IMG/VR virus record: IMGVR_UViG_3300032087_002150
Span: 64,001 to 128,000 of that record
DNA: 64,000 nucleotides
Origin: a virus
Direction: 5' to 3' (one strand)
This document shows positions 6,458-27,636 of the stretch, in pieces; the stretch's first letter is position 1, and each line of letters opens with the position of its first letter. The position numbers and the translations under genes are program-made. The notes under the pieces were generated by a model, which was not told the origin of the DNA, did no database searches, and was given only the letters and a program-made list of their open reading frames with translations.

Positions 6458-6481
6458 TCACTACTCCATTACAGAGTATCT

Positions 6482-6510
6482 ATTGTAACCTATTTTGAAA
6501 GAAAAAGCAA
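6482..6510 (-). promoter_or_regulatory. Sigma70-type promoter for gp43
   Basis: TTGCTT-N17-TACAAT on the minus strand just upstream of gp43. Confidence 0.65.
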
Positions 6511-6513
6511 GTA

Positions 6514-7146
6514 TTATGATATCTTGGATGCCACGACCTCAACAGTTTTACTTCCTTCTGTTCCAACTGCTGCGACTCCTAACACATAGGTTCCATTGAG
6601 ATCAGCATCATCGCCAGTTTCGCCACTAATTGTAAAACGAACAGAATTTGTTAGAAGTTGTTGTGAAGGAACCAACGTTTGGCTTGATCCAAGGGATTGT
6701 GTTACAGTCGGACCAGAGTTGGCGTCAACATATGCTTTTACTGCTGCTTGAGTTGCGATTCTTGTTGAACTATTCGCGGCAAGGTTGGCGTCATTATCCC
6801 ATCCTTCAACATTGATTGCCCCATCATTGAGATTGGCAAAAGTAAGGTCATCAACAGTGAGATTACCAAGGGATCCACCACTAGGACCAGAAAGTCCACC
6901 AGTGATTTCTGTACTACTGCCTGAAACAGAAAGACTTGCTCCTCCTGCTCCAGACAAACTACCACCAGATATTGTCACGCCACCAATGTCGCCTGTTGTT
7001 GCGGTCAGATCACCACTTGCTTGATCAAGAATAATGCTGCCAACGTTGGCGGTGACATCTGAAATGATTTCAGAACCATCGAAGTGCATCTCATCAGTAA
7101 AAAATTCTGATACTAACTCATTATCCAGTAAAGGGTTTCTTGGCAT
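6514..7146 (-). CDS. Gly/Ser/Thr-rich putative virion (fibre-like) protein
   Basis: Low-complexity beta-type composition; the ATQAAVKAYVD motif is common in phage fibre proteins; own late promoter at 7165-7171 and GGAGG RBS. Confidence 0.55.
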   Translation of the reverse strand: MPRNPLLDNELVSEFFTDEMHFDGSEIISDVTANVGSIILDQASGDLTATTGDIGGVTISGGSLSGAGGASLSVSGSSTEITGGLSGPSGGSLGNLTVDDLTFANLNDGAINVEGWDNDANLAANSSTRIATQAAVKAYVDANSGPTVTQSLGSSQTLVPSQQLLTNSVRFTISGETGDDADLNGTYVLGVAAVGTEGSKTVEVVASKIS

Positions 7147-7164
7147 AACTTATTCCTCCGACAT

Positions 7165-7171
7165 TATTTAG
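7165..7171 (-). promoter_or_regulatory. T4-type late promoter (CTAAATA)
   Basis: Variant of the TATAAATA late box upstream of the 6514-7146 gene. Confidence 0.55.
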
Positions 7172-8016
7172 TCTTCAATGATCACGAAGTCTCTGCTCCA
7201 AGTCGGACCAGTTAGTGGATTAACCTTCTCATTAGAGTATGACCCATCCTCTTGTATAAACTTCATAGTGTCGAAAATATTTTCATCCAGTTTATATTTT
7301 GTATTGTTGGTGTTGCCGCCATTTCTAAAGAAGAACTGTTTACAGGCAGGATCTAGTAACTCGTATCCCATGCCTTTTTGACACATGTAAACTGTTTCTG
7401 ATAAACAAGTCTTATCAATATCAACCCTTGCTTTCGTTGGCGCCAACACTTGATAACCATCAAAATCTAGTAGATCTTCCCTCGTCTCCAGATACAACAT
7501 TGTGCCGAATGGACCAGAAACTCTGTGGTCCATATATGGGAAGTTATACAGTAAGTCAACAAACTTCTTGGCGTACCTTTCAGACAACCCATAGAACTCC
7601 ATACAAGTTCCTGGCATAAAAATATCAACCTCACCCCAATACTCATCTACCATGTAACGGAAACTTTCTTCGTTAATCAGGGCAGCGTCATGCTCCATGA
7701 TAGCGATAGGTTCACCAGCGGCGATGCGTTCAATCAACATCAGTTGAGAATGCATGATCGAGTTATGTATTTCGTTGTCGCAGAACGTACCACCAAAGAA
7801 CCTTGCGCGCAAGTAATCTTTCCCATCATCCTCTACATAGAACGGGATTGGTTCTTCGTTCTTTTGAAATCGAATCGGGAGAGTTTTGGGTGTCGTGCAT
7901 TGAACAGGCGTGATGTTAACTATGTCACGAACTGGTTCAAAAGATTTTAGAGAAAGGTCAAGATACCGCATTGACAATTCATTATCAAAGTCACATATTA
8001 TAAATGCTTCAATCAT
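7168..8016 (-). CDS. Putative GT25-like glycosyltransferase
   Basis: N-terminal AFII strand; E.....HS..L.....PIAIMEHDA resembles the GT25 motif E.GC..SH..LW......ILEDD. Divergent. Confidence 0.45.
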   Translation of the reverse strand: MIEAFIICDFDNELSMRYLDLSLKSFEPVRDIVNITPVQCTTPKTLPIRFQKNEEPIPFYVEDDGKDYLRARFFGGTFCDNEIHNSIMHSQLMLIERIAAGEPIAIMEHDAALINEESFRYMVDEYWGEVDIFMPGTCMEFYGLSERYAKKFVDLLYNFPYMDHRVSGPFGTMLYLETREDLLDFDGYQVLAPTKARVDIDKTCLSETVYMCQKGMGYELLDPACKQFFFRNGGNTNNTKYKLDENIFDTMKFIQEDGSYSNEKVNPLTGPTWSRDFVIIED

Positions 8017-8025
8017 GATATAAGG

Positions 8026-8433
8026 TTAGTGCTTGACTCCTATGTTATATTTTGGGCAGAGTTCCCATTCACTTTTTTCTCGGAAAGAAACTACTTTGAT
8101 CTGACGAAGAGGTGCTTTGTCTGCTGCCTTCGATGAGTTGATGATGTTGACCAAACCCCAATCGCTCAGTAGAGTTGCGATTGTATTTCTTCGAGCAACG
8201 TCTGCCTCTTCCAAAGTTGCCTTTTTCCCATCCAGTAGGAATAATTCTTTGAAGTGTACAATAAAATACCTACCCTGTTTGTGCAGGATATGGCAAGATT
8301 GGAATAGTTTCTTTTCCTTTCTAGACGCTATTCCTATTCGCGTTAGTGTTTCGCGAACCTTTAGGAAATCGTCTGGTTCATTCAGCGTGACCTCCAGCAT
8401 ATCTGCTGGCGTCCATGATAGTACCTGTTCCAT
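8026..8433 (-). CDS. regA: Translational repressor RegA
   Basis: DDFLKVRETLTRIGIAS...LFQSCHILHKQGRYFIVHFKELF.LDG...RRNTIA.LL.DWGL. Confidence 0.97.
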   Translation of the reverse strand: MEQVLSWTPADMLEVTLNEPDDFLKVRETLTRIGIASRKEKKLFQSCHILHKQGRYFIVHFKELFLLDGKKATLEEADVARRNTIATLLSDWGLVNIINSSKAADKAPLRQIKVVSFREKSEWELCPKYNIGVKH

Positions 8434-8498
8434 ACAACGGATCCCATATATAAAGTTATACTTGTTATTTTCACTGACAGGTTTATTCTGTCATAGGT

Positions 8499-8879
8499 CT
8501 ATTTAGTGTTTTTCCCTCCTTTGAAAATCCTACTGGACAAGACCTTGAGATCATCTTCGCTGAACAAGTCTAAAACTGCTTCTGCTTTGGCGGTGCTGTA
8601 CCCATACACCTCTTTGATTAAGTCAATCGCATCTATTTTTTCTTTCTTCGCCCACTTACTAAATCGCTTCCTGGGTCTGATCGCATTACGGAGGAAGTCA
8701 AACTGTAGGCGACCATCAAGATGATGATTCCTGTTCATCTCGTTGGCAAGTAGGACGGTATCGCGGAAATAAGAAAGACCACGGTTTACCATGAACGAAG
8801 GATACTTGCTTTCGTTCTCGGCATCAAGCACATCTTTCTTACTGTGGTTTACGCTGTTCAGTACATCAAAGGGATTCAT
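8499..8879 (-). CDS. 62: Clamp loader small subunit (gp62)
   Basis: FMVNRGLS...LLANEMN...QFDFL...RKRFSKWAK...YGYS..KA; lies just upstream of regA. Confidence 0.92.
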   Translation of the reverse strand: MNPFDVLNSVNHSKKDVLDAENESKYPSFMVNRGLSYFRDTVLLANEMNRNHHLDGRLQFDFLRNAIRPRKRFSKWAKKEKIDAIDLIKEVYGYSTAKAEAVLDLFSEDDLKVLSSRIFKGGKNTK

Positions 8880-8888
8880 AATATAGTC

Positions 8889-10520
8889 TCAAAATAAACA
8901 GATTTCAGGATCTTCTTCGAAAGTTAATCCATCCATGTACATAGTCACTGGCGAGAATTGTAGACCATGCTCCAGTTCATGTAGTTGACTCATTATATAT
9001 CTCGTTCTCGCAATGGTCTCTACATTGTTTGTGGGTGGTGGTTGTTCTTCTGGTGGTAGTACGCAAAAACATCCACCCGTTGTTCCCATTTTTACTGATT
9101 GCCCAGCATACTCGCCTGCTTCGTCGGGATAAGTGCAAGTCAGATCATAGTTTGAGAACCTTCCAGTTGCTAGATCAGCATAAGACATGATTGTACCATA
9201 ACCACCATGTATGCCGTCATACTCTGGATTATCTTTATTTGGATTGTATCCTGGTAGATTGTATGCAAAGGAGTATTCAAATATTCCTGGTCTATCAGCA
9301 TCTTCCCATTCGTGTTGAGCACCTAGCAAATGACCAATCTCATGGGCGAACGTTTCATGTGCTCGTTCATAATATCTTGTAGATGCATTTTCTTGGAACA
9401 CACTATTATGGAAACACTGTGCGATGCCTCGAGTTTTACTCAAACCTTGTGTCGCGTCTAAACTAGCAACACCACACGCAATCGGATTTTCTGGTCTCTT
9501 TTTAAACAAGAACGCTATATCAGCGCCAACCTCTCGTTGCCAGTCGTCCAACCCATTAAACTCATAACGACCACCAAAGAATGCACTATACTGTCGATAC
9601 AAGTCACCTGGTGCTACTTCTACCAACTTGATACCAGCCAACCGAACCAAGGTCTTGGTACCAGAAGAAATATACATGTGATTTGATTCATAGATCTGTT
9701 TGTTCACGAACTCTTCAACAGTCATTCCGTCACGATCTTCTTCGGTGATGTTGGTATCAAACACAATCAACATATCAATCACAGCAGTCTCATACTGATC
9801 AGGATCGTAAGGGAAACTAACACCTGACTTCTGTTTTACACCATCACATGTCAGATAACCGTAACGAGAATCACCAGTGTCGGTAGGTGTGGTAGGACAA
9901 TCTTCTGGTTGTGTCATCTGCTCAAAGCATGTTTGATCGAGGTGTTCCAAACGGTCGGTATAGATGCCACCTTCACCATCCGCATAATCTTGTAGGCGAT
10001 CTTCTCGTAACAAGTGATTGATTCTTTCCGACACTATATCCAAATATTCTAGATCTTCCTCCAACTCAACAGCGCAATATGATTCTCCGATCGGCGTACC
10101 TTCTTCTGGTACAGCAGTCCAACCACATTCTTCGGAATCAGTATCTACAACTTCAGTGTAACTACCACCCTCGCCGTCAGCGAAATCCCTCACCTTGTCA
10201 TACTGTCCCAAGTTTTGTACACTGTTCAGTAGTTCTTGGAACCTCGTTTCAGAAGCATTCGCGCAATATGCATCACCCAAAGGTGTGCCGAACACAGGAG
10301 GAGCGACATATCCACACTTGGTTGAATCTGGAGTTTCTTCTTGAGTTGAACCACCATTACCATCGGCGATAGTTTGAATGAGCGTTGTACCGTCACAAGA
10401 TTCCTCAAGTACGGTTCCTTGTGCTGGGTTTGCTGGGGTGGTAATAGTCCCTTGATCATCAGAACTCCCACCGCCACCACAAGCAGTTAACAGTAGAAGC
10501 GGAAAGAGTATCTTTTTCAT
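8889..10520 (-). CDS. Lipoprotein zinc metalloprotease (metzincin, reprolysin/M12B-like) with Cys-containing N-terminal repeats
   Basis: Lipoprotein signal MKKILFPLLLLTA-C; HEIGHLLGAQH zinc motif; TIMSY Met-turn; three repeats of GT..(E/D)S.C...ADG(N/E)GG..T...C. Confidence 0.8.
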   Translation of the reverse strand: MKKILFPLLLLTACGGGGSSDDQGTITTPANPAQGTVLEESCDGTTLIQTIADGNGGSTQEETPDSTKCGYVAPPVFGTPLGDAYCANASETRFQELLNSVQNLGQYDKVRDFADGEGGSYTEVVDTDSEECGWTAVPEEGTPIGESYCAVELEEDLEYLDIVSERINHLLREDRLQDYADGEGGIYTDRLEHLDQTCFEQMTQPEDCPTTPTDTGDSRYGYLTCDGVKQKSGVSFPYDPDQYETAVIDMLIVFDTNITEEDRDGMTVEEFVNKQIYESNHMYISSGTKTLVRLAGIKLVEVAPGDLYRQYSAFFGGRYEFNGLDDWQREVGADIAFLFKKRPENPIACGVASLDATQGLSKTRGIAQCFHNSVFQENASTRYYERAHETFAHEIGHLLGAQHEWEDADRPGIFEYSFAYNLPGYNPNKDNPEYDGIHGGYGTIMSYADLATGRFSNYDLTCTYPDEAGEYAGQSVKMGTTGGCFCVLPPEEQPPPTNNVETIARTRYIMSQLHELEHGLQFSPVTMYMDGLTFEEDPEICLF

Positions 10521-10756
10521 CAGTGTATAGTATCCTCAATATATGGTTGAGAAAGCACCCACTGTACATCGGGCAACATACGGTATGTGAAATGAGAACC
10601 GTAGATATCCTCAACCTTTATCAATTCTTCATGAGTAAAGTCTCGCATCAATCTATCAATTACAAGTTGCTGTACTTCAGTAGCGAGGGAATCAACTTTT
10701 AATCTTACGGATTCCACGTCGCTGTCAGTAAAATCGTAGTCAAACAAACTCGACAT
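10520..10756 (-). CDS. Hypothetical protein
   Basis: In-strand ORF overlapping both neighbours. Confidence 0.6.
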   Translation of the reverse strand: MSSLFDYDFTDSDVESVRLKVDSLATEVQQLVIDRLMRDFTHEELIKVEDIYGSHFTYRMLPDVQWVLSQPYIEDTIH

Positions 10757-11678
10757 TCGCCATCATCTCCGTTAAACAAGCAACCATATTTAGTTCCGCA
10801 TCAGCAACGAACGCTGCCTTGTATTGATAATCCGCAAGGATTAGAACCAACTGAGGAATGCTGTTCGGCGCAACATACTGAGTCATAGCATCATAGATGC
10901 CACGGAAAATAGCAGCGGACTCAACGTCCATGTTATTGGCAACCCATACCCGCATGTTCTTGAAGTCTTTTTCTTTGATATAGGAAAACAACTCCGCGAT
11001 ACTTTCGCTGTTTGACTTACTGAGAACATCCAGTTGAAGTTCGCCGCCACGAGAGTGACGCTGAAGTTCGTTGATGATTCTTCGCCAGTCAGGAGCGTGA
11101 CGCATAATCAGTTCGGCGAGAACTTTTCCGTTATCAAGTTTGACGTTCTCTTGATCCAGAATAAACTTCGCTCGCTTCATAAACTGTTCGCAAAGTTTCG
11201 CCATGTCTTTCTTGCTGGTGTTAAACTCAATCACACCACAACGAGAATGGAGAGGTTCGATGATCTTGTTCTTGAAGTTACAAGTCAGAATGAATCGACA
11301 GTTCTTCGAGAACTCCTCGATAAACCCACGGAGAGCAGGTTGGGTTGACTGTGCATTCAGATAGTCTGCCTCATCAAGGATACATACTTTGTACCCGCCT
11401 GACAAGGAAACACTGGAAGCGAACTGTTTGATCTTACCACGGAGAGTGTCGATATTACCAGACTCCGAAGCGTTGATCAAGATATAGTCAAGGTCAAGCT
11501 CGTTACAGATAGCACGAGCAACAGTAGTTTTGCCAAGACCAGCAGTACCAGTTAGCAACATGTTCGGCACTTCGCCAGTGCCCACAATCTCTTTAAACTG
11601 TGCCTTCAAGTGATCTGGAAGGATACACTCATCAATCGTCTTCGGACGATACTTCTCAACCCACAATGATTCAACCAT
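10740..11678 (-). CDS. 44: Clamp loader large subunit (gp44)
   Basis: LWVEKYRPKTIDECILP, GTAGLGKTT Walker A, ILDEAD, PLHSRC. Confidence 0.97.
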   Translation of the reverse strand: MVESLWVEKYRPKTIDECILPDHLKAQFKEIVGTGEVPNMLLTGTAGLGKTTVARAICNELDLDYILINASESGNIDTLRGKIKQFASSVSLSGGYKVCILDEADYLNAQSTQPALRGFIEEFSKNCRFILTCNFKNKIIEPLHSRCGVIEFNTSKKDMAKLCEQFMKRAKFILDQENVKLDNGKVLAELIMRHAPDWRRIINELQRHSRGGELQLDVLSKSNSESIAELFSYIKEKDFKNMRVWVANNMDVESAAIFRGIYDAMTQYVAPNSIPQLVLILADYQYKAAFVADAELNMVACLTEMMANVEFV

Positions 11679-11704
11679 AATATAACTCCATCATCAACAT
11701 ACAT

Positions 11705-11733
11705 ATTATACTAAATTTGCCGTTTCCAGTCAA
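11705..11733 (-). promoter_or_regulatory. Sigma70-type promoter for gp44
   Basis: TTGACT-N17-TATAAT. Confidence 0.75.
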
Positions 11734-12445
11734 ACGTGATTTTCTCTATATTTTTCCATAACTTAGGATCTAGGTTTCTGGACTTAACCAGATCAACCAT
11801 AGGTTCTATGCCTCTTTGATCACGCTGTTTTACCGTCTTGTCGTCTGGGTACTCAGTCCCAGTCACCTCGTTGTCGATCACGATCTTTCGCCCCATACGG
11901 TTGGAAGGGAGGATCGTATCCATCAGTTTCGGGGAAGCAATCTGATCGAGTCGATCCCTGAACAGTTTGTCTCCCATATGCCAACCACGAAGTTCCTCGT
12001 CATACCCACCAGCGGCGAAGAAATCACTTCGGCGACAGGCGAAGATATTCCCTGGGTCACCACCGAACAGATTGCACAGTACATACTCACCTTCCTTAGA
12101 AGCGGCGATGTCCTTCTGTAATGCCTCACAGAAGTCCTCAGTGAGTTCCTGGTCAACGTCCATGAACATCAACCAGTCATGTCCAGCGGCAACAGAAGCA
12201 CCAAGGTTTCTCGCTCCATGAGCGTTGAACCCATAGTCAACTGCGACTCTGTAGAGCATGACCTTCTTTCTGTTACAGCAACATTCTTCGATGTGAGACT
12301 GTACTATAGGTTTGGCGGGATAGTTGGGAGAGGCATCATCGATGATTATAACTTTGTCAAAATACTTGAATGTACAATCATTGTACAAAATACCCTCAAG
12401 TCTATCAGGGTCTTCATAATATGGTATAATCAATGCCGTGGTCAT
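11711..12445 (-). CDS. Glycosyltransferase family 2
   Basis: LIIPYYE, IIIDDAS, GFNAHGARNLG, DVD, GGYDEE. Start placed at MTTALII after the TAAGGA RBS. Confidence 0.85.
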   Translation of the reverse strand: MTTALIIPYYEDPDRLEGILYNDCTFKYFDKVIIIDDASPNYPAKPIVQSHIEECCCNRKKVMLYRVAVDYGFNAHGARNLGASVAAGHDWLMFMDVDQELTEDFCEALQKDIAASKEGEYVLCNLFGGDPGNIFACRRSDFFAAGGYDEELRGWHMGDKLFRDRLDQIASPKLMDTILPSNRMGRKIVIDNEVTGTEYPDDKTVKQRDQRGIEPMVDLVKSRNLDPKLWKNIEKITFDWKRQI

Positions 12446-12460
12446 ATAGTTCCTTAAAGC

Positions 12461-12531
12461 GAGCAGTTTTCCCACTTACTCAGGTGACGGTGCGCATACC
12501 GACCAGAGCGAGTTTAGAGTCATCTCGAGAC
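12461..12531 (-). ncRNA. Structured RNA element, manA-motif-like (tentative)
   Basis: GUCUCGAGAUGACUCUAAACUCGCUCUGGUCGGUAUGCGCACCGUCACCUGAGUAAGUGGGAAAACUGCUC has stems CGAG/CUCG, CGGU/ACCG and GAGUA/UGCUC, plus possible loop pairing. The 5' half resembles, from memory, the start of the manA RNA motif of marine phages. Confidence 0.45.
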
Positions 12532-12537
12532 TAAATA
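12531..12537 (+). promoter_or_regulatory. Late promoter (CTAAATA) for the plus-strand peptide gene
   Basis: Late-box variant followed 7 nt later by hairpin GACC-ATGT-GGTC, then an AAAAGGAG RBS. Confidence 0.55.
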
Positions 12538-12579
12538 ATAACTGACCATGTGGTCTATAACGACAAAAGGAGTAACAGT

Positions 12580-12672
12580 ATGGAAATGCAACTTCCTCTT
12601 ATCGGAAAACTTCACCTCCCTTCACTATTACTTGGGGGTGGCGCAATGCTACTCTTACTGTGGCTTTTGTAA
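12580..12672 (+). CDS. 30-aa hydrophobic membrane peptide (not in ORF track)
   Basis: MEMQLPLIGKLHLPSLLLGGGAMLLLLWLL*; AAAAGGAG RBS 7 nt upstream; upstream promoter and downstream terminator. Confidence 0.7.
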   Translation: MEMQLPLIGKLHLPSLLLGGGAMLLLLWLL

Positions 12673-12691
12673 CACTAGATAATCTGGTATC

Positions 12692-12723
12692 AAGGGGAGC
12701 ATCTGCTCCCCTTTCATTTATTT
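12692..12723 (+). terminator. Rho-independent terminator (possibly bidirectional)
   Basis: AAGGGGAGC-ATCT-GCTCCCCTT followed by TCATTTATTT. Confidence 0.75.
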
Positions 12724-12875
12724 AACCAAGCATCTATCTTTTCGCCCATCACTAAATCTACCCAAGACGCTCCTTTGTAGAGTTTGCCTATACACCAGTA
12801 AGTTGCATCCCAAACCAGTGCTATTGGGGCGATCAATATTATTTTTCCCCATCTAACGAGTTCTTCTTTCGCCAT
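12714..12875 (-). CDS. Small hypothetical membrane protein
   Basis: MAKEELVRWGKIILIAPIALVWD...; one hydrophobic segment. Confidence 0.55.
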   Translation of the reverse strand: MAKEELVRWGKIILIAPIALVWDATYWCIGKLYKGASWVDLVMGEKIDAWLNK

Positions 12876-13039
12876 AATTCTTTCGACCACTCCGGATGTT
12901 TTACGATCTGTATTTTTTCGTACCCATACCACCATTGCCCTTGTTCGTCCATACACGGGATATGATATTCTCTTGCAGATACGTTCTTCTTTTTTCTTTT
13001 TCTTCCTACAAAAAACTTTTCTGTTAGATTGTCAAGCAT
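12839..13039 (-). CDS. Small hypothetical protein
   Basis: In-strand ORF overlapping the upstream stop. Confidence 0.5.
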   Translation of the reverse strand: MLDNLTEKFFVGRKRKKKNVSAREYHIPCMDEQGQWWYGYEKIQIVKHPEWSKELWRKKNSLDGEK

Positions 13040-19209: not shown

Positions 19210-19270
19210 ATTATGAATGAAAACGTGTCCAAAAGCAAATCTGAAATACTCTAATAGAATCAATAACTTA
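19210..19270 (-). promoter_or_regulatory. Early promoter with upstream IHF-consensus box (copy 1)
   Basis: TTGCTT-N17-CATAAT; AATCAATAACTTA (WATCAA-N4-TTR) at 19258-19270. Confidence 0.65.
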
Positions 19271-21604
19271 GGCAACCTTCGCCACCAAGTCATTGAGCAT
19301 CTTGCGGGACTTCTTGCTACCAACCATTGACTTGCGGAAGGCAGTGCGGAGGCGACTCTTGGTCGCACCCTGTAGGGTATCGTCGATCTTGCTGTCAACA
19401 ATCATCAGGGATGACTTGCGGATCAGGTAGCACTCATCATATCCGACAGCAGGCATAGTGATGAATCCTTCCTTACTGTACTGATGCCAGAGGTCATCCA
19501 TAACAGTCCAATCTTTGAACCCGACCATACTGCCATAGTCACTTTCCATGTGGCGGCGACTGTTCTCAGCGATACGATATCCGATCACGTTGCTACCAGT
19601 TGCATTCTTGTACATGGCGAGAAGCATATCGGTCGCCTGAACATTGCGATAGTCATACTTCTTGTTGCCACGGAAAGTTCGGTTGGTCAACGGGCAGGTG
19701 ATAGTCACATACCCATCGCGATACAGGTTGCTGCGAACAGGACTGTACTGATGACCAACAGCGTCCATCTCGTGAGACATGCCATCCGTCAAGAAGAAGG
19801 TGTTGAGCACGTCGAGTTGATGTTGCTTGCGGAAAGCAATCGCCAAGGGTGTGCCGATAGCGATCGCCTCGTCCATAGGTGTACCGCCAAGACGGAAAGC
19901 ATCAAGTTCAAGGAACCTTCGCGCACAATGCCAGAAAGAACGACCGTTGATGTCGCCGATATTGTTGGCGAGTTCAATCATGCGCTTCTTGCTGACGTTA
20001 CGACAAAACTGAGCAAGCAATGCCTTAGCGATAAGAATCATATCTGGTTTACGCTGATCGCTGCTGAACAACTCAAGGAGGCGACCGTCTTGGACGAGAA
20101 GCGTGCCCTTGTTCATATCACGTTGATCAACAATGTTTCCATGATAGGACAGCGAGTTGGTGAAACCATACACGCGGAAGGGCACGTTGATCTGTCGACA
20201 GAAGTGAGTCAGGAGCAGAGTCTGCTCGACAGTCTCATACATGACGTCGTACATAGAACCTGACATGTCAAGGTACATAATGAAACCATGGTTCTTGCCT
20301 TCAGGTACAATGGTGACTTTCTTAAAGATATCGTCAGAGAACTTGTAGTTGTTCATCTTGACCGTGTCGATGACACCAGTTTTAGAAGTCAAGGAACGAC
20401 GATGTTCGCCAGCAGACTTCTTCATCTCAAACTCTTTGACCATAGCATTGACTGCTTTCTTATTGACACGCGACCACTCGTTGTAGAGCGCAGTGCCAAA
20501 AGTTTCAATCATCTCAAGACGAATCTCGGTCTCTGCCTCAATACGTTCGGAACGCCAAGTTTCTAAATCACGGTCATTTATCTTGTAAGAGATGAGGTCG
20601 CCGTTACGAATCTCATTGACTAAATCCTTGTGCGAGATAACGTAATCGCTCCAGTTGCGAGTGTAGTCATTGACGCGGAGGTTGGTCACCTTACCACCAT
20701 GCGTAGTGTAGATCTCATTGTTGATCGAATCACGCAAGGTCTTGTCGGTGTTAGACATGGGTTCAGCGGGAGCACCACCTGCCTGATCGGAGAAGGAATC
20801 ATAGTCGCCTTCCCACTCACCTTCTTCCTCCTCACCATCTTCATAGTCAGAGGATGTTGGCGAACCTGAGTTGTCGTCGGTGTAGTCGTCACCCTGTTCA
20901 GAAGCAGACTCCCCTGCTTCAGATTCCATGAGTTCTTCATCAGAGTCATCTTCGTCCCAACCCATGGCAGGTTCATCGTCATCCTGCTCCTCGCCTTCTT
21001 CCTCGGCAAGTTCTTGAGCACGTTGCTTCGCTTCTTCCTGTTGCTGCTCAAGTTCTTCCTTACAGAAACCAAACAGGTCGTCGGTGATAGAAACAACGTC
21101 TTCCCAAGTTTCGGCATTTTCAATACGGGGCAACCACTGCTTCTCGTCGTCAGTAAACTTGACGCCAGCAGACATACCGCACTTGAAGTAAGTATTGATG
21201 CGGTCAATCAAACCCATCTGGTTAATCGCGTCGATGTCAGCACCGAAGAAACCATCGGCGAGCAGTTTACGATAAGACTTGATGAAAGGAGCACGCAGAC
21301 CAGGATACTTGCGCTGGATCAACTTCTCGATCCGAGCATCCTCGACCACGTTGAGGAATGACTTGTAACCAGCACCCTTGGCGCATACAGCGTCATGCCA
21401 ACCTTCAAGGGGAGTGTAAAGAGCGTGACCCACCTCGTGACCAATCAGGTGGTCCTCGGTATAAGCAGAAACATCTGCCCACATAGGCAGAGTCAGTACA
21501 CGGTTCTTGACATCAAACATAGCAGTCCGCACGTTGTCCTGTACGACCGTGATGTTCTCGGTCGCTAGAAGTTTGGCGGTAACTGACTTTGCTGCTTGAT
21601 CCAT
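19268..21604 (-). CDS. CobT-like vWA / metallopeptidase partner of the AAA+ ATPase
   Basis: HEVGHALYT, NVVEDARIE, acidic linker, DMSGSM MIDAS motif, GGTP, FLTDG. Confidence 0.85.
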   Translation of the reverse strand: MDQAAKSVTAKLLATENITVVQDNVRTAMFDVKNRVLTLPMWADVSAYTEDHLIGHEVGHALYTPLEGWHDAVCAKGAGYKSFLNVVEDARIEKLIQRKYPGLRAPFIKSYRKLLADGFFGADIDAINQMGLIDRINTYFKCGMSAGVKFTDDEKQWLPRIENAETWEDVVSITDDLFGFCKEELEQQQEEAKQRAQELAEEEGEEQDDDEPAMGWDEDDSDEELMESEAGESASEQGDDYTDDNSGSPTSSDYEDGEEEEGEWEGDYDSFSDQAGGAPAEPMSNTDKTLRDSINNEIYTTHGGKVTNLRVNDYTRNWSDYVISHKDLVNEIRNGDLISYKINDRDLETWRSERIEAETEIRLEMIETFGTALYNEWSRVNKKAVNAMVKEFEMKKSAGEHRRSLTSKTGVIDTVKMNNYKFSDDIFKKVTIVPEGKNHGFIMYLDMSGSMYDVMYETVEQTLLLTHFCRQINVPFRVYGFTNSLSYHGNIVDQRDMNKGTLLVQDGRLLELFSSDQRKPDMILIAKALLAQFCRNVSKKRMIELANNIGDINGRSFWHCARRFLELDAFRLGGTPMDEAIAIGTPLAIAFRKQHQLDVLNTFFLTDGMSHEMDAVGHQYSPVRSNLYRDGYVTITCPLTNRTFRGNKKYDYRNVQATDMLLAMYKNATGSNVIGYRIAENSRRHMESDYGSMVGFKDWTVMDDLWHQYSKEGFITMPAVGYDECYLIRKSSLMIVDSKIDDTLQGATKSRLRTAFRKSMVGSKKSRKMLNDLVAKVA

Positions 21605-21628
21605 ATCTTTCTCCTCAACTCAGACTAT

Positions 21629-21689
21629 ATTATGACTGAATCTGGGTACAAAGTAAAGTCTAAAAAACTCTAATGAAATCAATAACTTA
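21629..21689 (-). promoter_or_regulatory. Early promoter with upstream IHF-consensus box (copy 2)
   Basis: TTTACT-N17-CATAAT; AATCAATAACTTA at 21677-21689. Confidence 0.6.
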
Positions 21690-21932
21690 GAAATCGAAAT
21701 GCTCAACGCGAGCATATTCAGGGTATTCAGCGGCGAGTTCTTCGGCATGAACCGCATACTCAAAGAAGAAAGTATGCTGATAGTTGTCAGTCCATGTCTC
21801 GAAATGCCATGCTTTTTTAGGCAGGTGTTCTTTGCACCATTCGCGACCTTCAAAGAATAGGTCAGAGTGCAGGTGGCAAGCAGTTCCTGGTCGCCACCTG
21901 AGTTTGTACTCAAAGATTTCTTGAGGTGTCAA
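21687..21932 (-). CDS. Hypothetical protein
   Basis: MTPQEIFEYKLRW...WCK...W....TD.Y.HTFFFE; overlaps the upstream stop. Confidence 0.65.
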   Translation of the reverse strand: MTPQEIFEYKLRWRPGTACHLHSDLFFEGREWCKEHLPKKAWHFETWTDNYQHTFFFEYAVHAEELAAEYPEYARVEHFDF

Positions 21933-22498
21933 AGCATAGACTCCAATGAGTTGTGCTGCCAGTCAGAGATACGATCCCATTGAACTTCCCAGAGCATCTC
22001 CTGACCTTCTTCGTCAAACTCGCGTTCTTCAGGGTCAAAGTGCGCTCGAAGTTCTTCATCGTTCTCGAGGCACATGTCGATAAACTCATCGCTCTCAAGT
22101 TCTTCTTGATCTTCCAGACCGCCAGCATCAAAGACTGCGCAACCAATAAAGTTACAGAACTCGTCTTCATATGTCAAGGCGAGGCGAACGCCAGCATCTA
22201 CCACACCAATCTGTTCAGCAAGGTAAGCGCAGAACTCGATACAGGGTGACCAAGCAGAATACATAGACAGACCATACTCATCATGATCTGTAAGGTATGC
22301 CCACTTCGCGCCAACGAGGTCGCACATATTCTCTCGATTCATATCGTCGTAGGAATCAAAGAAAACAAACCCAAGATGCTTCTCACCACCTTGAGTATCG
22401 TCTCGATCCAATCGACCAAGGATTTCGTTCCAAACCTCACGACCCTTCTCATTCAACTCAGAACGGAGACTGAGGTATTGACTCACATGATTTGCCAT
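21929..22498 (-). CDS. Hypothetical acidic early protein (SAWSP motif, ferredoxin-like fold tentative)
   Basis: MANHV...GAKW...SAWSP...YEDE; GGAGG RBS behind an early promoter. Confidence 0.65.
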   Translation of the reverse strand: MANHVSQYLSLRSELNEKGREVWNEILGRLDRDDTQGGEKHLGFVFFDSYDDMNRENMCDLVGAKWAYLTDHDEYGLSMYSAWSPCIEFCAYLAEQIGVVDAGVRLALTYEDEFCNFIGCAVFDAGGLEDQEELESDEFIDMCLENDEELRAHFDPEEREFDEEGQEMLWEVQWDRISDWQHNSLESML

Positions 22499-22531
22499 AG
22501 TATCCTCCTAGTTTGATAAGGCAACTTTATT

Positions 22532-22592
22532 ATTCTGCCTGAATAAAACCGCAAAGGCAAATCTAAAAAACTTTAAGATAATCAAGGACTTA
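22532..22592 (-). promoter_or_regulatory. Early promoter with upstream IHF-consensus box (copy 3)
   Basis: TTGCCT-N17-CAGAAT; AATCAAGGACTTA at 22580-22592. Confidence 0.6.
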
Positions 22593-23399
22593 CGCAAAGA
22601 AATCTTCTAGTGAAACGGAACTAGACTTTTCGTACTTGCCTCCACTCTTATCTCGTAGACGAAGTTCAGCGTGCCCAGTAGAACTACGAATGTACATAGA
22701 GCAAAGATCTGGAAACATCTCAGCAATCTTGGTGATCGAATCATGCACATATTGCTCAGTCCTTATAGTTTGTAGTCCACCTTCCTCTTTGTAATAGTTG
22801 GACTTCACTGTGTATTTATCAAGGCGGCACAGTACACCGTGTTTCACATACTGTCGCAGACTATACTCATAGTCCTCGCCATGATTAGTTACACGATCAA
22901 GGTATTCATCATGATCACAAATGACGCCAAACATAGAAGCAATGATATAACAAAGTTTAGAGTAGACTCGATCCTTCATAAAGTATGCGTTCGCAGCTGC
23001 GTAGATACCAAAAGTTTTAGCACCGAGTTCCTCACAGTTTTTAAACCCCTGTTCAATAATCTCAGTGTAGAGATCATCAATGGGTTCTAGAGTTTTCTCA
23101 TCCTTCCTACGTTGTACCTGTTCAATGTCGTCATCAAACATCATCAGGTAAGTGCCCTCTGGGTAATACTTCTCAATCCAGTTACGTTGAGCACCGATAG
23201 TCGGGACACCAACTACAATGTTGCCTCCATACTTGTGTCCAGCAAGTGCCTCTTTGTATACTGCTTCCTCTTCTTCATTCGCAACGAAAACAGTAACACG
23301 TTCAGGTGGGATGTTATGTTCCTCAAATACCTTGAACGTCTTATCTTGAATAGTCTTAGATCGTTGGTAGGAAGGGCAGGCGATTTGATAATCAATCAT
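22590..23399 (-). CDS. TET/JBP-associated (GREB1/TAGT-like) GT-A glycosyltransferase
   Basis: IACPSYQR, AQRNWI, MFDDDI, GEDYEYSL, GGLQ; in an operon with a TET/JBP dioxygenase; C-terminal SVSLEDFFA. Confidence 0.8.
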   Translation of the reverse strand: MIDYQIACPSYQRSKTIQDKTFKVFEEHNIPPERVTVFVANEEEEAVYKEALAGHKYGGNIVVGVPTIGAQRNWIEKYYPEGTYLMMFDDDIEQVQRRKDEKTLEPIDDLYTEIIEQGFKNCEELGAKTFGIYAAANAYFMKDRVYSKLCYIIASMFGVICDHDEYLDRVTNHGEDYEYSLRQYVKHGVLCRLDKYTVKSNYYKEEGGLQTIRTEQYVHDSITKIAEMFPDLCSMYIRSSTGHAELRLRDKSGGKYEKSSSVSLEDFFA

Positions 23400-23799
23400 T
23401 ACAAACTCTCTTTCTTAAATCACTAGAACTAAATCGGTGGTCTCTTTTGTTAAAGTATAGATCGATGTCACGTTTGCGACAAATATCTTTACCAGTAAAA
23501 TCTTTATCCCGATACTCTTCGCCGAGGATACGCACGTTGATATGATACATCGCTAGGATATCTTCTAGGTCTGCCTCAGTAGAGTATGGGATAATCTCAT
23601 CAACGTAGCGAACTGCTTTGAGTTGAGTGTATCTCTCGACGACAGTTTGAATAGGTTGATTTTTGTTAGGACGGTCAAGAGTCGGGTCTACCTGTAGTCC
23701 ACAAATCAAATAATCACATTGGTCTTTGGCATCACGAAGCATTTGTACATGTCCAGCATGCAGCAAATCAAAAGCACTACAAGTAAACCCAACTCTCAT
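23392..23799 (-). CDS. TagD-like cytidylyltransferase / nucleotidyltransferase
   Basis: FDLLHAGH (HxGH), ER..QL.AVRYVDEII.Y, RFSSSDLR. Confidence 0.88.
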   Translation of the reverse strand: MRVGFTCSAFDLLHAGHVQMLRDAKDQCDYLICGLQVDPTLDRPNKNQPIQTVVERYTQLKAVRYVDEIIPYSTEADLEDILAMYHINVRILGEEYRDKDFTGKDICRKRDIDLYFNKRDHRFSSSDLRKRVCND

Positions 23800-25220
23800 C
23801 CGAAAAACTCCTCAAGCGAACCTGCTTGTTGGAAAGCATTAGGATGATATTCCATCAACATGGACTTACCACCCTTCTTTTCAAGGTATTCATACCACTC
23901 AGTCTCATCCCACATGCCAGGGGAGACACCATTCCAATACTCGCGCCATAACTTATGCTCTTTGTTAAGTCGGCGGTCATCAACGTATTGTTTACGATAC
24001 GACTCATACTCCCAAGAACCCAACTTATCCATATCCTCGCGGAAGTAATATACCAGAGACATACGCATCAAGTCATCTTCACCTGAGTCGGGTGCTTCGA
24101 TAGGAGTGTTGCCATGGATCACTCGCATGTTATCAACGAGTAGCAGGTCTCCTGGTCGAACGTTGATAGCAACGCGAACCTCTGGACAAACAAGATAACC
24201 ACCCTTCCAGTTTCGCTTACCGTCACTGATCACAGTCAGGTTTGAGAATCCTGGGACGAGCGAACCTTGGTCACGGTGGCATGCCATACGTGCATTACGA
24301 TCCTTGGTGGTTGTGTTCACTGTAATCGTAGTGAAGGTTGTATCCTCGCCGATCAAGAAACGGTTGTCCAATCTATCAGCAAATGCTTTCTGCTTGCTGT
24401 ATCGTTCAGGAAGCAACTCGGCGAAAGTCTTGTCGAGTTTACGAGCGAACGGATATGACTTCTCAAACTTCTCACGGTTGTGGTCAACGTATGAAGTCGC
24501 CCGACCATATGGGATACGTGGGTATCGACCATAGAAACCTGCGATACCTGACCAGATAGCAGTCGCATAAGAAGTATCGGAGATCATGGTATCACGAACA
24601 CGCTGAGCATATATTGATGCTGCATGAATATCTGGAGAATAACCAAGACCCTTGGTCAACTCAGAAAGTCGCACCATTAGTTTCGGAAAGAACCCATCAT
24701 ACTCGCCGAACTCTTTCTCAATAGCAGTCGTCAACCAAACTTCGCCTCTCGCCTGCTCATCGTTGCTGCTTTTAGCAATCTCTTCCAACGGATCAGATCC
24801 GTCGATGCTTGGCGGTTGCCCTTTGATGTACCAATCGAGGACTCTACTTTGAAACGCAGTGACCCACTCGCGACCATATGACTTGCCTTCCCTCGGACCT
24901 GCTGCTAGACCACGATTGTTCGACTCAACTGCTGCGCCATACAACCCTTCAAGAGCACCGTCCTGTTCTTCCTGAGTAAACACACCCTTGCGGAACTTAA
25001 ACGCAATACGATCCTCGTTTAGAGTATCACCTGTCAACGAGTTACTCGGAAGATAAAAATCTGTATCTCTATCAATCAAGATGTCATAGTGTTCCTCGTC
25101 AACAAACTGACCAAGGACTTTGTCTTCAGACTCTATGAAGTTAGCAATGTATACATCTTGACCTTCGTCACCAGTGAACCAGTCCCAAGTGTAGTTTCCG
25201 TGTTTGATTTTTTCGTTCAT
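23796..25220 (-). CDS. TET/JBP-family 2OG-Fe(II) DNA dioxygenase
   Basis: FTTITVN...ACHRD (HxD)...GGYLV.PE.RVA...RPGDLLL...HGNTPI...RMSLVYY(F)RE; C-terminal SLEEFFG. Confidence 0.85.
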   Translation of the reverse strand: MNEKIKHGNYTWDWFTGDEGQDVYIANFIESEDKVLGQFVDEEHYDILIDRDTDFYLPSNSLTGDTLNEDRIAFKFRKGVFTQEEQDGALEGLYGAAVESNNRGLAAGPREGKSYGREWVTAFQSRVLDWYIKGQPPSIDGSDPLEEIAKSSNDEQARGEVWLTTAIEKEFGEYDGFFPKLMVRLSELTKGLGYSPDIHAASIYAQRVRDTMISDTSYATAIWSGIAGFYGRYPRIPYGRATSYVDHNREKFEKSYPFARKLDKTFAELLPERYSKQKAFADRLDNRFLIGEDTTFTTITVNTTTKDRNARMACHRDQGSLVPGFSNLTVISDGKRNWKGGYLVCPEVRVAINVRPGDLLLVDNMRVIHGNTPIEAPDSGEDDLMRMSLVYYFREDMDKLGSWEYESYRKQYVDDRRLNKEHKLWREYWNGVSPGMWDETEWYEYLEKKGGKSMLMEYHPNAFQQAGSLEEFFG

Positions 25221-25227
25221 AGTTCCT

Positions 25228-25256
25228 ATTCTACTAAATCACAAATCAAAAGTCAA
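25228..25256 (-). promoter_or_regulatory. Sigma70-type promoter for the TET operon
   Basis: TTGACT-N17-TAGAAT just upstream of the ATG at 25220. Confidence 0.65.
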
Positions 25257-25409
25257 TACCTGAGAATCAACCATTGTAAACTTTTGACTTTTGGTTCGTA
25301 TCTCTAATCCGTTGTATTTATGTTTGATCCCGTTTTCAGTCATTTCCTTAGATAAAGAGGCGAGGTCATTGTACTTCATTGATTTCTTCTTGGGAATATA
25401 TTTCTTCAT
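25239..25409 (-). CDS. Small basic hypothetical protein (56 aa; not in ORF track)
   Basis: MKKYIPKKKSMKYNDLASL...VLTFDL; ATGA overlap with the upstream gene. Confidence 0.55.
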   Translation of the reverse strand: MKKYIPKKKSMKYNDLASLSKEMTENGIKHKYNGLEIRTKSQKFTMVDSQVLTFDL

Positions 25410-25921
25410 TTATTATGTTTCTTTGCACCTTTAAGGTACTCATTACCACAATCAGAATGCGGTCCATTGGCATCAACGTAATGTAAGAAGGATTGGTAAA
25501 CCATACCATCTGGATTAGAATCTCTCCAGTGCATCAATGGGCGGTGGTATACTACTGCGTCACCTTGTTCCATAGCATATGAACCACCATCCCAATGAAA
25601 CTCCCAAGGAGATTTTTCATTGCGAAGGCAAACAGTGACACTGACTTGACAAGCAGGACGATCGCTGTGCTTCTCTAAGGTTTCTCCTACGGAATATATT
25701 CTACAATAGTCGTAAGTTGGAATGAGTTCTAATCCAGTAATAGATTCCATCTTCTCGAGAGAATCTTCTAGTAAGTCCCAGTTTGCACCATAGATTGCCC
25801 AAGAGTTTCTACATTGACCGTCATCAAACTGCATATTTTCTTTCATGCTTTCCATTCTATCTGCGTATTGATTCGCAGTGTCAATGTCCAAGAACCCTTT
25901 TACGACTTGCGCGAGTTTCAT
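25406..25921 (-). CDS. 2OG-Fe(II) oxygenase
   Basis: PTY.Y.RIY..G..L.KHSDRPAC.VSVT...GDAVVY...HWR...Q.FLHYV..NGP. Confidence 0.85.
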   Translation of the reverse strand: MKLAQVVKGFLDIDTANQYADRMESMKENMQFDDGQCRNSWAIYGANWDLLEDSLEKMESITGLELIPTYDYCRIYSVGETLEKHSDRPACQVSVTVCLRNEKSPWEFHWDGGSYAMEQGDAVVYHRPLMHWRDSNPDGMVYQSFLHYVDANGPHSDCGNEYLKGAKKHNK

Positions 25922-27636
25922 GCTGCTATCTTCGAGAAGTTTTTATCTTTAACGAACTCAATCTTAGAGTCGAACTTACCCTCAAGCATTTCACCTTTGT
26001 GTGAAATGATAAACACATTGGTATCTTCGCCGAGAGTATGAATAATCTTCATTAGGTTTTCGATACCTGCTTCATCTAGCGATGAGTCGAACGTCTCATC
26101 AAGGATGAGAAGATTAGTACTGATACTGTTCTTCATCTTAGCAACCTGTCGCCAAGTAAACAAGAGCGCCAAGTCGATACGTTGCTTCTCGCCCTCAGAG
26201 AAAGAGTCATAGGTAAACGAATCACGGTGGCGCGATCGTATAGTTTCTTGGAAACTTTCGTTAAGGTCAAAGTGAACATAGAAGTCTAGGATAGACAGAT
26301 ACTGATTGACGAGCTTGTTGATAACAGGCAAGTATTGTTTTACGATTTTAGTTTTGATGCCAGTATCCTTCAGCATCTCTGCTATCACACTGTTGTATGC
26401 TGCTGTATCATTTAGTTTATTTCTAGTGTCCATCAACTCATGGTATTCTTTTACTAGAACATCATAATCGTCGTTCGCCTTAGCAAGATCTGATTTATCA
26501 TCGGACAAGTTTTCAATGTCGTACTCAGCAATCTGTATTTCCGAGTTACACTTGTTAATCAAATCTTGATGCGTTTGTATCTCGTTTCTCCATTCTTGAT
26601 TCTGACTTGACCTAGACTCGCCTTCAGCAAGACGCTCGGTTACTTCTGCTGTTTCCTCTGTGATTTTAGCAAGAGATGATTGAAACTCTGTTGCTGTGAC
26701 TTTTGCTTGCTCGATTTTCCCTCTTTTGAGTTGCTCGTCGATGTCTTGCTCACAGGTGGGGCAGGTCTGGTTGTTCTCATAGAATCGTGTTTCCTTGACT
26801 AATGCTTTGATTTTAGTTTTTATTTCAGTATTGGCAGATTGAAGATCGACCAAAGCAGATCTCGCTTGAGTGAGTTCTTCTTCTAATCCTATACTGTTCC
26901 CAGAGATTTTATCAGTCAGTTCTGTGATGCTATTAATATGTGATTCTTTCTCATCCTTGTATCGTTGGATGAGTTCTTCTTTTTCCTGTTTAGCATCATG
27001 ATTGAGTTTAGAGATATCGCGAATGTATTTCTTTTGTGCTTCAGTTTTGGTTTCGTTAATCTCAATGTCATGGTATGCTTGATTAATCTTTTCTTTCAAT
27101 GCTGAGTTTCGTTCTTTCAGCAACGCATTCATCTTAGAGAACACGCCGATATCAAGTAGATCTTCGATCACTTCCCTACGGTTGAACGCAGACAGTTGCA
27201 TAAATGGAGTGAAGGAAGAAGAACCAAGTACCACTACCTGATGAAATGTTTTATGGGTCAACTTCAGAATATTCTGCTCTAGGACTTTTTGATATTCTTT
27301 GTTGTGAGAGTTTTGATTGAGCAGAGTACCGTCAACATATATCTCAAACTTCGCAGGTTTTAATCCACGAAACACCCTGTACTTTTTAGCACCGATAGTA
27401 AACTCCACCTCTACTTCACACTTCTTATCGTTGACCGAGTTGACCAGTTGTGGTTTATTTATGTTTCTGTGCGCTTTGCCGAACAATGCGAACGAGATAG
27501 CATCGAGCATAGTTGATTTACCCGAACCGTTTTGTCCAACAACTAATGTGTGTTTGCTCGCATCTAAACTTATATCCGTCCAGTTGTTACCAGTGGACAA
27601 AAAGTTTTTGTATCTAACCGATGTGAAATATATCAT
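25918..27636 (-). CDS. 46: Recombination endonuclease ATPase subunit (gp46)
   Basis: GQNGSGKST, CPTC zinc hook, FSEGEKQRIDL, LILDETFD, ISH. Confidence 0.97.
   Translation of the reverse strand: MIYFTSVRYKNFLSTGNNWTDISLDASKHTLVVGQNGSGKSTMLDAISFALFGKAHRNINKPQLVNSVNDKKCEVEVEFTIGAKKYRVFRGLKPAKFEIYVDGTLLNQNSHNKEYQKVLEQNILKLTHKTFHQVVVLGSSSFTPFMQLSAFNRREVIEDLLDIGVFSKMNALLKERNSALKEKINQAYHDIEINETKTEAQKKYIRDISKLNHDAKQEKEELIQRYKDEKESHINSITELTDKISGNSIGLEEELTQARSALVDLQSANTEIKTKIKALVKETRFYENNQTCPTCEQDIDEQLKRGKIEQAKVTATEFQSSLAKITEETAEVTERLAEGESRSSQNQEWRNEIQTHQDLINKCNSEIQIAEYDIENLSDDKSDLAKANDDYDVLVKEYHELMDTRNKLNDTAAYNSVIAEMLKDTGIKTKIVKQYLPVINKLVNQYLSILDFYVHFDLNESFQETIRSRHRDSFTYDSFSEGEKQRIDLALLFTWRQVAKMKNSISTNLLILDETFDSSLDEAGIENLMKIIHTLGEDTNVFIISHKGEMLEGKFDSKIEFVKDKNFSKIAA

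Follow-up and report, generated by a model that had tools for sequence, protein, structure and literature searches.

A candidate thymine hypermodification operon with TET/JBP dioxygenase, nucleotidyltransferase and glycosyltransferase genes in a marine T4-like phage

What would a phage make with a TET/JBP-family dioxygenase, a nucleotidyltransferase and a glycosyltransferase that are encoded in one operon with no cytosine methyltransferase beside them? This question is raised by a locus in the IMG/VR virus record IMGVR_UViG_3300032087_002150, which comes from an uncultured marine T4-like phage. We analyzed a window of 64,000 nucleotides, bases 64001-128000 of this 151,660-bp viral contig, which is 84% complete. 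From its sequence and from structural models, we regard the locus as a real and well-supported DNA hypermodification operon. We refer to the three proteins as TET, NT (the HxGH-class nucleotidyltransferase) and TAGT (TET-associated glycosyltransferase).

We propose that the operon would carry out an early-expressed, post-replicative hypermodification of the phage DNA in up to three steps: (i) TET would hydroxylate thymine in phage DNA to 5-hydroxymethyluracil (5hmU); (ii) TAGT, a GT-A enzyme, would move a sugar from a nucleotide-sugar to the 5hmU hydroxyl; and (iii) with chances that we put at about even, NT would make or boost the activated donor for this particular subclade of TAGTs, a donor that is more probably an NDP-sugar than CDP-glycerol. 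The product would be a base-J-like glycosyl-5hmU, shielding the DNA from host nucleases. Because both end in the peptide of the DNA polymerase, TET and TAGT are probably tethered to the sliding clamp in the wake of the replication fork. Sequence and models together lead us to give the base-J-like product of TET and TAGT rather more than even credence.

The TET and TAGT enzymes of the operon

An initial annotation of the window had described an operon of TET, nucleotidyltransferase and glycosyltransferase genes, and the open reading frames (ORFs) and their Pfam matches bear this out. The three ORFs run in the same direction on the minus strand, with stop and start codons that overlap by 4 bases between TET and NT and by 8 bases between NT and TAGT. 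The interval given for the system, 23392-25220, takes in TET and NT; the glycosyltransferase that was named with them falls outside it. A megablast search of the operon against 50,697 phage records gave no match. The features on which the argument draws are as follows, with protein lengths in amino acids (aa).

25228..25256, minus strand: candidate sigma-70-like (early-type) promoter, TTGACT-17-TAGAAT, directly upstream of the TET start; it matches the consensus at 10/12 positions, the best in the region
23796..25220, minus strand: TET, a TET/JBP-family Fe(II)/2-oxoglutarate (2OG) dioxygenase of 474 aa in the long T4-like form, which is extended by about 200 aa at the N terminus; PF12851; putative thymine dioxygenase
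23799..23822, minus strand: C-terminal tail of TET, GSLEEFFG, resembling the tail of the phage's own DNA polymerase; putative T4-type clamp-binding peptide
23392..23799, minus strand: NT, an HxGH-class nucleotidyltransferase (CTP_transf_like) of 135 aa; PF01467; no clamp-type tail
22590..23399, minus strand: TAGT, 269 aa; PF20691, phrog_842; GT-A fold; putative 5hmU-DNA glycosyltransferase
22593..22619, minus strand: C-terminal tail of TAGT, SVSLEDFFA, the same nine residues with which the family-B DNA polymerase ends
3938-6457: family-B DNA polymerase, 839 aa, used for tail comparison with TET and TAGT

TET scored 55.8 bits against PF12851 (cut-off 34.9) over residues 247-395, a match that was confirmed in a genome search. 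Residues H315, D317, H369 and R386, which form the HxD...H iron triad and the 2OG-binding arginine, are invariant in a 50-sequence homologue alignment. The AlphaFold2 model (pLDDT 93) is a double-stranded beta-helix, and its top Foldseek matches in the PDB are TET2, CcTet, NgTET1 and CMD1, with E values of 1e-9 to 1e-7 that rank above FTO. Pfam score, the HxD...H...R set and a predicted fold like those of TET2, NgTET1 and CcTet thus all assign the enzyme to the TET/JBP family. An exhaustive search returned 1160 cluster representatives at E up to 0.001; most of these are proteins of about 300 aa that cover only residues ~205-420 of TET, and the full long form is present in about 25 clusters. 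We note that the TET orthologues in phages DLP6, Cr30 and S-CBWM1 (KU682439.2, KF301602.1 and MG450654.1) carry the annotation 'SNF2 DNA repair protein'; Pfam gave no SNF2 match on the window orthologue, and the label looks wrong.

TAGT scored 61.8 bits against PF20691 (cut-off 27.5) and falls in PHROG family phrog_842. Its AlphaFold2 model (pLDDT 92) has a GT-A fold with RmlT, AvpGT, TarS and TarP as top PDB matches, and these nearest folds are all nucleotide-sugar transferases that use UDP or TDP donors. Within the DxD motif, D89 and D90 are invariant, and D91 is kept in at least 90% of sequences. A modeled GT-A fold with DxD argues for transfer of a nucleotide-sugar and makes transfer of a polyol-phosphate unlikely. 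TAGT and TET also travel together: among 41 TAGT relatives in IMG/VR (57-81% identical), TET adjoins TAGT or lies one ORF away in 38, and the other 3 loci end at a contig edge. Judged by gene order in these 38/38 untruncated loci, TET-TAGT is a fixed module. The family has a precedent on DNA, as it includes the T2/T6 DNA glucosyltransferase, which adds a second glucose to glucosyl-5-hydroxymethylcytosine (glucosyl-5hmC) (PMC13390438).

The C-terminal tails of the two enzymes bear on the nature of their substrate. The last nine residues of TAGT and of the polymerase are the same, and the TET tail is similar. Across about 60 T4-like loci, we found the corresponding [ST]LE.FF tail on essentially all TETs and on TAGT, AADTs, GNATs and one GT1, and never on NT, epimerase, Glf, GATase or kinase. 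It was not found on short TETs or on the TAGTs of non-T4-like loci. The T4 DNA polymerase, gp43, bears a clamp-binding tail. By analogy, the tailed enzymes are probably recruited to the sliding clamp, which argues for DNA as their substrate, and the tail may generally mark DNA-modifying enzymes that are tethered to the clamp. A predicted complex of TAGT residues 230-269 with three copies of the sliding clamp scored 0.20, with the mark at 0.34, and we counted this result neither way.

The base oxidized by TET and the cassettes behind it

The initial annotation had reported neither a C5-cytosine methyltransferase (C5-MTase) nor a thymidylate-synthase-like gene in the window, and had suggested thymine rather than 5-methylcytosine (5mC) as the substrate. 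Searches with PF00145 (C5-MTase), PF00303 (ThyA) and PF02511 (ThyX) agree on the first point for the window and extend it to the rest of the available genome: none of the three matched in the contig at its 84% completeness, with control genomes positive, and a six-frame motif scan for PCQ.FS with ENV gave nothing credible. PF00145 was likewise not found in three complete genomes with TET orthologues, namely those of C48C1 (TET 67% identical), DLP6 (51%) and Cr30 (38%), nor in the contigs of two relatives that are 85-89% complete.

The accompanying premise, a usual pairing of phage TETs with a C5-MTase, is outdated. Among mined phage 5mYOX pathways only about 6% include one, and glycosyltransferases are the commonest neighbors (PMC13229309). 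Phage thymine dioxygenases were published in 2025-26, and examples without a C5-MTase have been verified experimentally, in vivo as well as in vitro (PMC13229309). The DNA of DLP6 is entered as restriction-enzyme resistant in the phage table of a review (PMC8228603).

The genes that follow TET in related phages carry the rest of the argument. The operon is surrounded by SbcD/SbcC, CobT/CobS-like genes, a clamp, a clamp loader and the family-B polymerase, and the TET orthologues at 29 IMG/VR loci (62-92% identical) mostly occupy the slot SbcD-SbcC-(p171)-TET-[cassette]-CobT-CobS, in which p171 is a 171-aa protein described below. The cassettes after TET differ between lineages:

Closest relatives: NT - GalE-like epimerase - GT4 - unknown 342-aa protein - UDP-galactopyranose mutase - GIY-YIG-like protein
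C48C1: only the 342-aa homologue and Glf
Several lineages at 65-71% identity: GATase - (amidoligase-like) - GNAT - AADT (PF18724) - P-loop kinase 3 (PF18751)

The AADT and kinase set, as Lee et al. reportedly described in 2018, elaborates 5hmU in DNA. In a quick maximum-likelihood tree with SH-aLRT support, the window TET falls within a 16-row clade that includes the AADT/kinase-linked TETs (SH-aLRT 99). Because the window TET shares a clade with these, we read the comparison as one conserved oxidase that feeds interchangeable downstream chemistries, some of them 5hmU-specific. Thymine is accordingly named here as the likely substrate on comparative sequence grounds, with both the missing methyltransferase and the orthologues beside 5hmU machinery in its favor, and a base-J-like glycosylation of 5hmU by the adjacent glycosyltransferase, as first suggested, has gained support as well. 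The thymine, base-J-like reading is probably right and is no longer a surprise.

Three points pull the other way. First, the T2/T6 enzyme of the TAGT family extends glucosyl-5hmC and not a bare hydroxymethyl base (PMC13390438); because TAGT is the only glycosyltransferase of the operon, the proposed pathway requires it to work on the bare hydroxymethyl base. Second, the case for thymine is strong, though short of proof, because Burke et al. left room for a role of such enzymes on 5hmC: in methyltransferase-bearing contigs, a kinase together with aGPT-PPlase might act on that base (PMC8256090). Third, a contig that is 84% complete leaves room for a distant C5-MTase.

The slot itself deserves description. 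The SbcC-CobT interval (window 19268-27636) is a hypervariable cassette slot behind a conserved TET, and the cassettes seen in it are (i) TAGT; (ii) GalE-GT4-unknown-Glf-GIY-YIG; (iii) GATase-GNAT-AADT-kinase; (iv) a kinase only; and (v) GT1 with a GmrSD_N-like gene. In the closest relatives, the boundaries of the cassette swap lie exactly at the end of the NT gene and at the start of a gene for a 189-aa protein. Caulobacter phage Cr30 (KF301602.1 53365-66681) has TET, an AADT-like protein of 409 aa, a TAGT of 308 aa and inositol-1-phosphate synthase within 6 kb, with NT about 93 kb off, and two thymine modifications might coexist in this cultured phage. At C48C1 (OQ984149.1) and further loci, TET is followed by an unannotated protein of ~342 aa (phrog_14998) and UDP-galactopyranose mutase. 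This gene order suggests that a DNA base bears galactofuranose and that the 342-aa protein is a transferase not recognized as such.

The nucleotidyltransferase and competing explanations

If TET and TAGT suffice for the proposed product, what is the third gene for? NT matches PF01467 (E 7e-14), with its HxGH motif in the form LLHAGH and a (R/K)YVDE motif. That an HxGH nucleotidyltransferase sits between TET and the glycosyltransferase is correct as first annotated; its identification as a TagD that makes CDP-glycerol found no support. NT scored 63.8 bits against the TagD equivalog TIGR01518 (cut-off 165.4) and 64.0 bits against the HldE domain II equivalog TIGR02199 (cut-off 181.5), and at about one third of either cut-off we rejected it as an equivalog of both. 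A pairwise ranking against the PDB placed ECT and then TagD (51 bits) ahead of HldC (32 bits). TIGRFAM, PDB and Atlas look-ups leave NT unseparated between TagD-like and HldE-like enzymes, and several families among its usual phage neighbors drew no name from PHROG and Pfam scans.

Gene neighborhoods leave the proposal that NT supplies the donor for TAGT evenly balanced. In its favor, five other gene orders bring NT to within 7 kb of TET-TAGT: NT-TET-TAGT; TET-TAGT-NT; NT-SbcD-SbcC-x-TET-TAGT; NT about 5 kb downstream; and, in a sister lineage, TET-NT-GalE... The NT-linked cases concentrate in the TAGT subclade of the window, with 4/5 rows of the starred clade (label clustering, 9/500 shuffles). 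At the level of whole records, NT is present in 5/12 TAGT-bearing records and in 0/8 TET records without TAGT, the latter including the complete C48C1 and DLP6 (one-sided Fisher p ~0.05, a hand calculation that ignores kinship among the records). There is also a precedent: in contig 53 of bioRxiv 10.1101/2023.12.21.572611, a CTP-transferase-like enzyme is required for heptosyl-5hmC in a phage 5mYOX cluster. A more specific version, in which NT makes an unconventional non-UDP donor (a polyol, or a sugar of heptose or mannose type linked to ADP or CDP) and the clamp-tethered TAGT subclade moves it onto the 5hmU made by TET, we put forward only tentatively and consider rather unlikely. Use of CDP-glycerol by a DxD GT-A enzyme is unlikely.

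The strongest competitor falls just short of an even chance in our estimate. It holds that modification is a two-gene pathway, in which TET and TAGT would use a host UDP-sugar, and that NT is a mobile passenger serving a host-surface or virion glycan pathway. The T2/T6 enzyme of the TAGT family takes UDP-glucose as its donor, which fits this account. So does the distribution of NT, whose relatives occur on at least 598 IMG/VR stretches and in at least 4 different genomic contexts. Between phages whose DNA polymerases share just 27-40% identity with that of this phage, NT keeps 82-96% identity; either the gene moves very readily or it is very strongly constrained. In phages it is found most often in the order DNA polymerase - cupin - NT - PMM-like HAD-IIB - SDR epimerase or NDP-sugar dehydrogenase, and its homologues in Bacteroidota (64-71% identical) lie in polysaccharide loci with GT4, WecA-like, ManC, UGDH and SDR genes. 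Because of these phage and bacterial contexts and of carriers that have no TET, we place NT, on present comparisons, in glycan-precursor metabolism, with a function independent of TET.

Several counts tell against a role of NT in making the donor for TAGT. Among the best 80 relatives of NT, 75 (82-93% identical) have no TET, TAGT, SbcCD or CobST nearby, and TET and TAGT were both missing from 12 NT-bearing records, including a complete 357-kb phage, in searches whose positive controls matched; the carriers include jumbo phages that have no TET. Conversely, 32/38 TET-TAGT pairs have no NT within 7 kb, and in the sister lineage TET-NT stands beside a GalE-GT4-Glf cassette that is self-sufficient. 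The real client of NT could be a separate glycan-tailoring island of the same phage, which lies outside the window at 4.2-12.2 kb of the contig. The stretch 4000-13000 of the contig carries two GT25 genes along with genes for a class I methyltransferase, an SDR epimerase/dehydratase and a carbamoyltransferase, and also sulfotransferase-like and GT8-like genes.

A passenger role is in turn hard to square with the position of NT inside the operon, with overlapping codons on either side, and with its recurrence beside TET-TAGT in several orders, specifically in the TAGT subclade of the window. NT is also missing from 8/8 TET records without TAGT, and the sister lineage again has it beside a glycosyltransferase cassette. 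As a separate observation, Flavobacterium, Kaistella and Chryseobacterium carry an NT homologue after GT1 - UDP-galactopyranose mutase - unknown 403-aa protein, an order reminiscent of the NT/Glf cassette of phages, so that NT may be part of a pathway for galactofuranose-linked glycans.

The initial annotation had also raised a polyol-phosphate modification, in which a TagD-type NT would make CDP-glycerol or another CDP-polyol and the polyol-phosphate would be joined to 5hmU. An HxGH enzyme with a (R/K)YVDE motif and a PDB ranking that favors ECT and TagD over HldC speak for such a route; relatives of NT are named TagD in sources and in automatic cluster names, and its bacterial homologues sit in polysaccharide loci, where decoration with glycerophosphate is plausible. 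Nonetheless, we consider this route improbable. NT falls far below the TagD cut-off and HldE domain II scores equally, and the enzymes usually found beside it in phages act on sugar-phosphates and nucleotide-sugars. When the operon and its flanks were scanned with Pfam, PHROG and NCBIfam, no match carried the annotation of a TagB/TagF-type phosphotransferase, nor was a LicD-like one detected in the operon, and the sole transferase of the operon models as a DxD GT-A sugar transferase.

Marginally less probable again is a cytosine route, in which TET would oxidize 5mC that comes from a methyltransferase, either of the host or of the phage and then encoded on the missing part of the genome, and TAGT would glycosylate 5hmC as in the published clade A/B phage systems. 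The incomplete contig gives this route some room, the phage 5mYOX-glycosyltransferase pathways characterized so far have been reconstituted on 5hmC, and some phage thymine dioxygenases reportedly oxidize 5mC too. Against it stand the lack of a PF00145 match in the contig and in three complete and two near-complete relatives, with no motif IV/ENV signature, as well as the coupling of orthologues to thymidine-hypermodification enzymes; host Dcm-type sites would moreover be a sparse substrate. We think it very improbable that the dioxygenase and glycosyltransferase act on a protein or small molecule instead of DNA, as a weak local similarity of TET residues 346-398 to clavaminate synthase and TauD-type enzymes might hint, given that the TET fold is nearest to the DNA-acting TET2, NgTET1, CcTet and CMD1, that orthologues adjoin DNA-base transferases, that the locus lies among replication and recombination genes, and that TET and TAGT both carry the tail of the DNA polymerase.

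Flanking genes, significance and known systems

Glycosylation of 5hmU by TET and TAGT thus remains the reading that we favor, and two further genes flank the operon.

25406-25921, minus strand: p171, a 171-aa protein just upstream of TET; phrog_2954, labeled 'ferrochelatase'
21929-22498, minus strand: p189, an acidic 189-aa protein downstream of the cassette that matches no family

We considered p171 as a ParB-like activator and rejected it: it gave no ParB signal, and its likeness is to a domain of viral 2OG-Fe(II) oxygenases, where it resembles the domain fused to 2OG-FeII_Oxy_3. It is present with TET in some lineages only. Close relatives keep p189 downstream of the cassette. Its local resemblance to APOBEC (E 0.017) is weak, with a motif spacing that is wrong for a deaminase, and we took it as chance.

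It is only very recently that phage TET-like enzymes were shown to hypermodify thymine after replication, and this locus is a compact three-gene candidate for glycosylated 5hmU; the literature searched yielded no glycosylated 5hmU product of a phage. The lineage is a common marine T4-like one and has cultured relatives with orthologous TETs in Cr30, DLP6 and C48C1. If NT does provide an unconventional donor, the product would be an undescribed hypermodified thymine, in a marine T4-like lineage that is abundant. The comparative picture is of a conserved TET, a fixed slot and interchangeable cassettes (TAGT; GalE-GT4-Glf; GATase-GNAT-AADT-kinase). Combined with the tails, this pattern would offer a practical rule for separating DNA-acting from donor-making enzymes in such clusters, and the two together point to a coupling between modification and the replisome. 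Mapping of 5hmU could draw on new DNA glycosyltransferases and thymine dioxygenases as tools. The product chemistry and the clamp-type tails are what make the locus worth an experiment.

Among known systems, the phage thymine dioxygenases (5mYOX clades C1/C2; O'Toole et al., PNAS 2026, PMC13229309; and 5mYOX89, Burke et al. 2021, PMC8256090) belong to the same TET/JBP family and likewise have no neighboring C5-MTase. They have in common with the window TET and its orthologues a linkage to a glycosyltransferase or to AADT/kinase/GATase genes, a likeness drawn from descriptions, and post-replicative conversion of thymine to 5hmU is the expected chemistry for both. The characterized ParB-independent thymine dioxygenases are about 290-300 aa long, whereas the window TET has 474 aa with its ~200-aa N-terminal extension, and its polymerase-like C-terminal tail is not described in O'Toole et al. 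2026 or Burke et al. 2021. The ParB-dependent subclass (O'Toole et al. 2026) has a neighboring ParB-like activator; ParB_N (PF02195) had no match at E<=0.1 in the contig of this phage, a search that a highly divergent ParB might escape.

Kinetoplastid base J, made by JBP1/JBP2 and JGT, follows the shared logic of a TET/JBP hydroxylase that makes 5hmU and a glycosyltransferase that acts next. The glycosyltransferase here is a GT-A enzyme of the TAGT family (Pfam matches TAGT only), set beside JGT by description. The phage system differs in having no J-binding or SNF2 domain, in its probable role of genome protection as opposed to transcription control, and perhaps in a donor other than UDP-glucose.

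In contig 53 (bioRxiv 10.1101/2023.12.21.572611), a HAD/APH enzyme, a CTP-transferase-like enzyme and a GT-B enzyme lead to heptosyl-5hmC, and the likeness lies in a 5mYOX cluster with a cytidylyltransferase-like gene by a DNA glycosyltransferase. Here, by contrast, there is no C5-MTase and no HAD/APH kinase-phosphatase, the glycosyltransferase is GT-A and not GT-B, and the base is probably thymine. The T2/T6 beta-glucosyl-HMC-alpha-glucosyltransferase shares its family (PF20691/phrog_842), its phage DNA substrate and its T4-like background with TAGT; it adds a second glucose to glucosyl-5hmC that is made pre-replicatively, whereas TAGT is the only glycosyltransferase here and is paired with TET. 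Finally, NT shares with TagD and with HldE domain II/HldC an HxGH fold of about 130 aa, and both family models match it over its full length; set beside these enzymes, NT forms a distinct subfamily common to phages and Bacteroidota.

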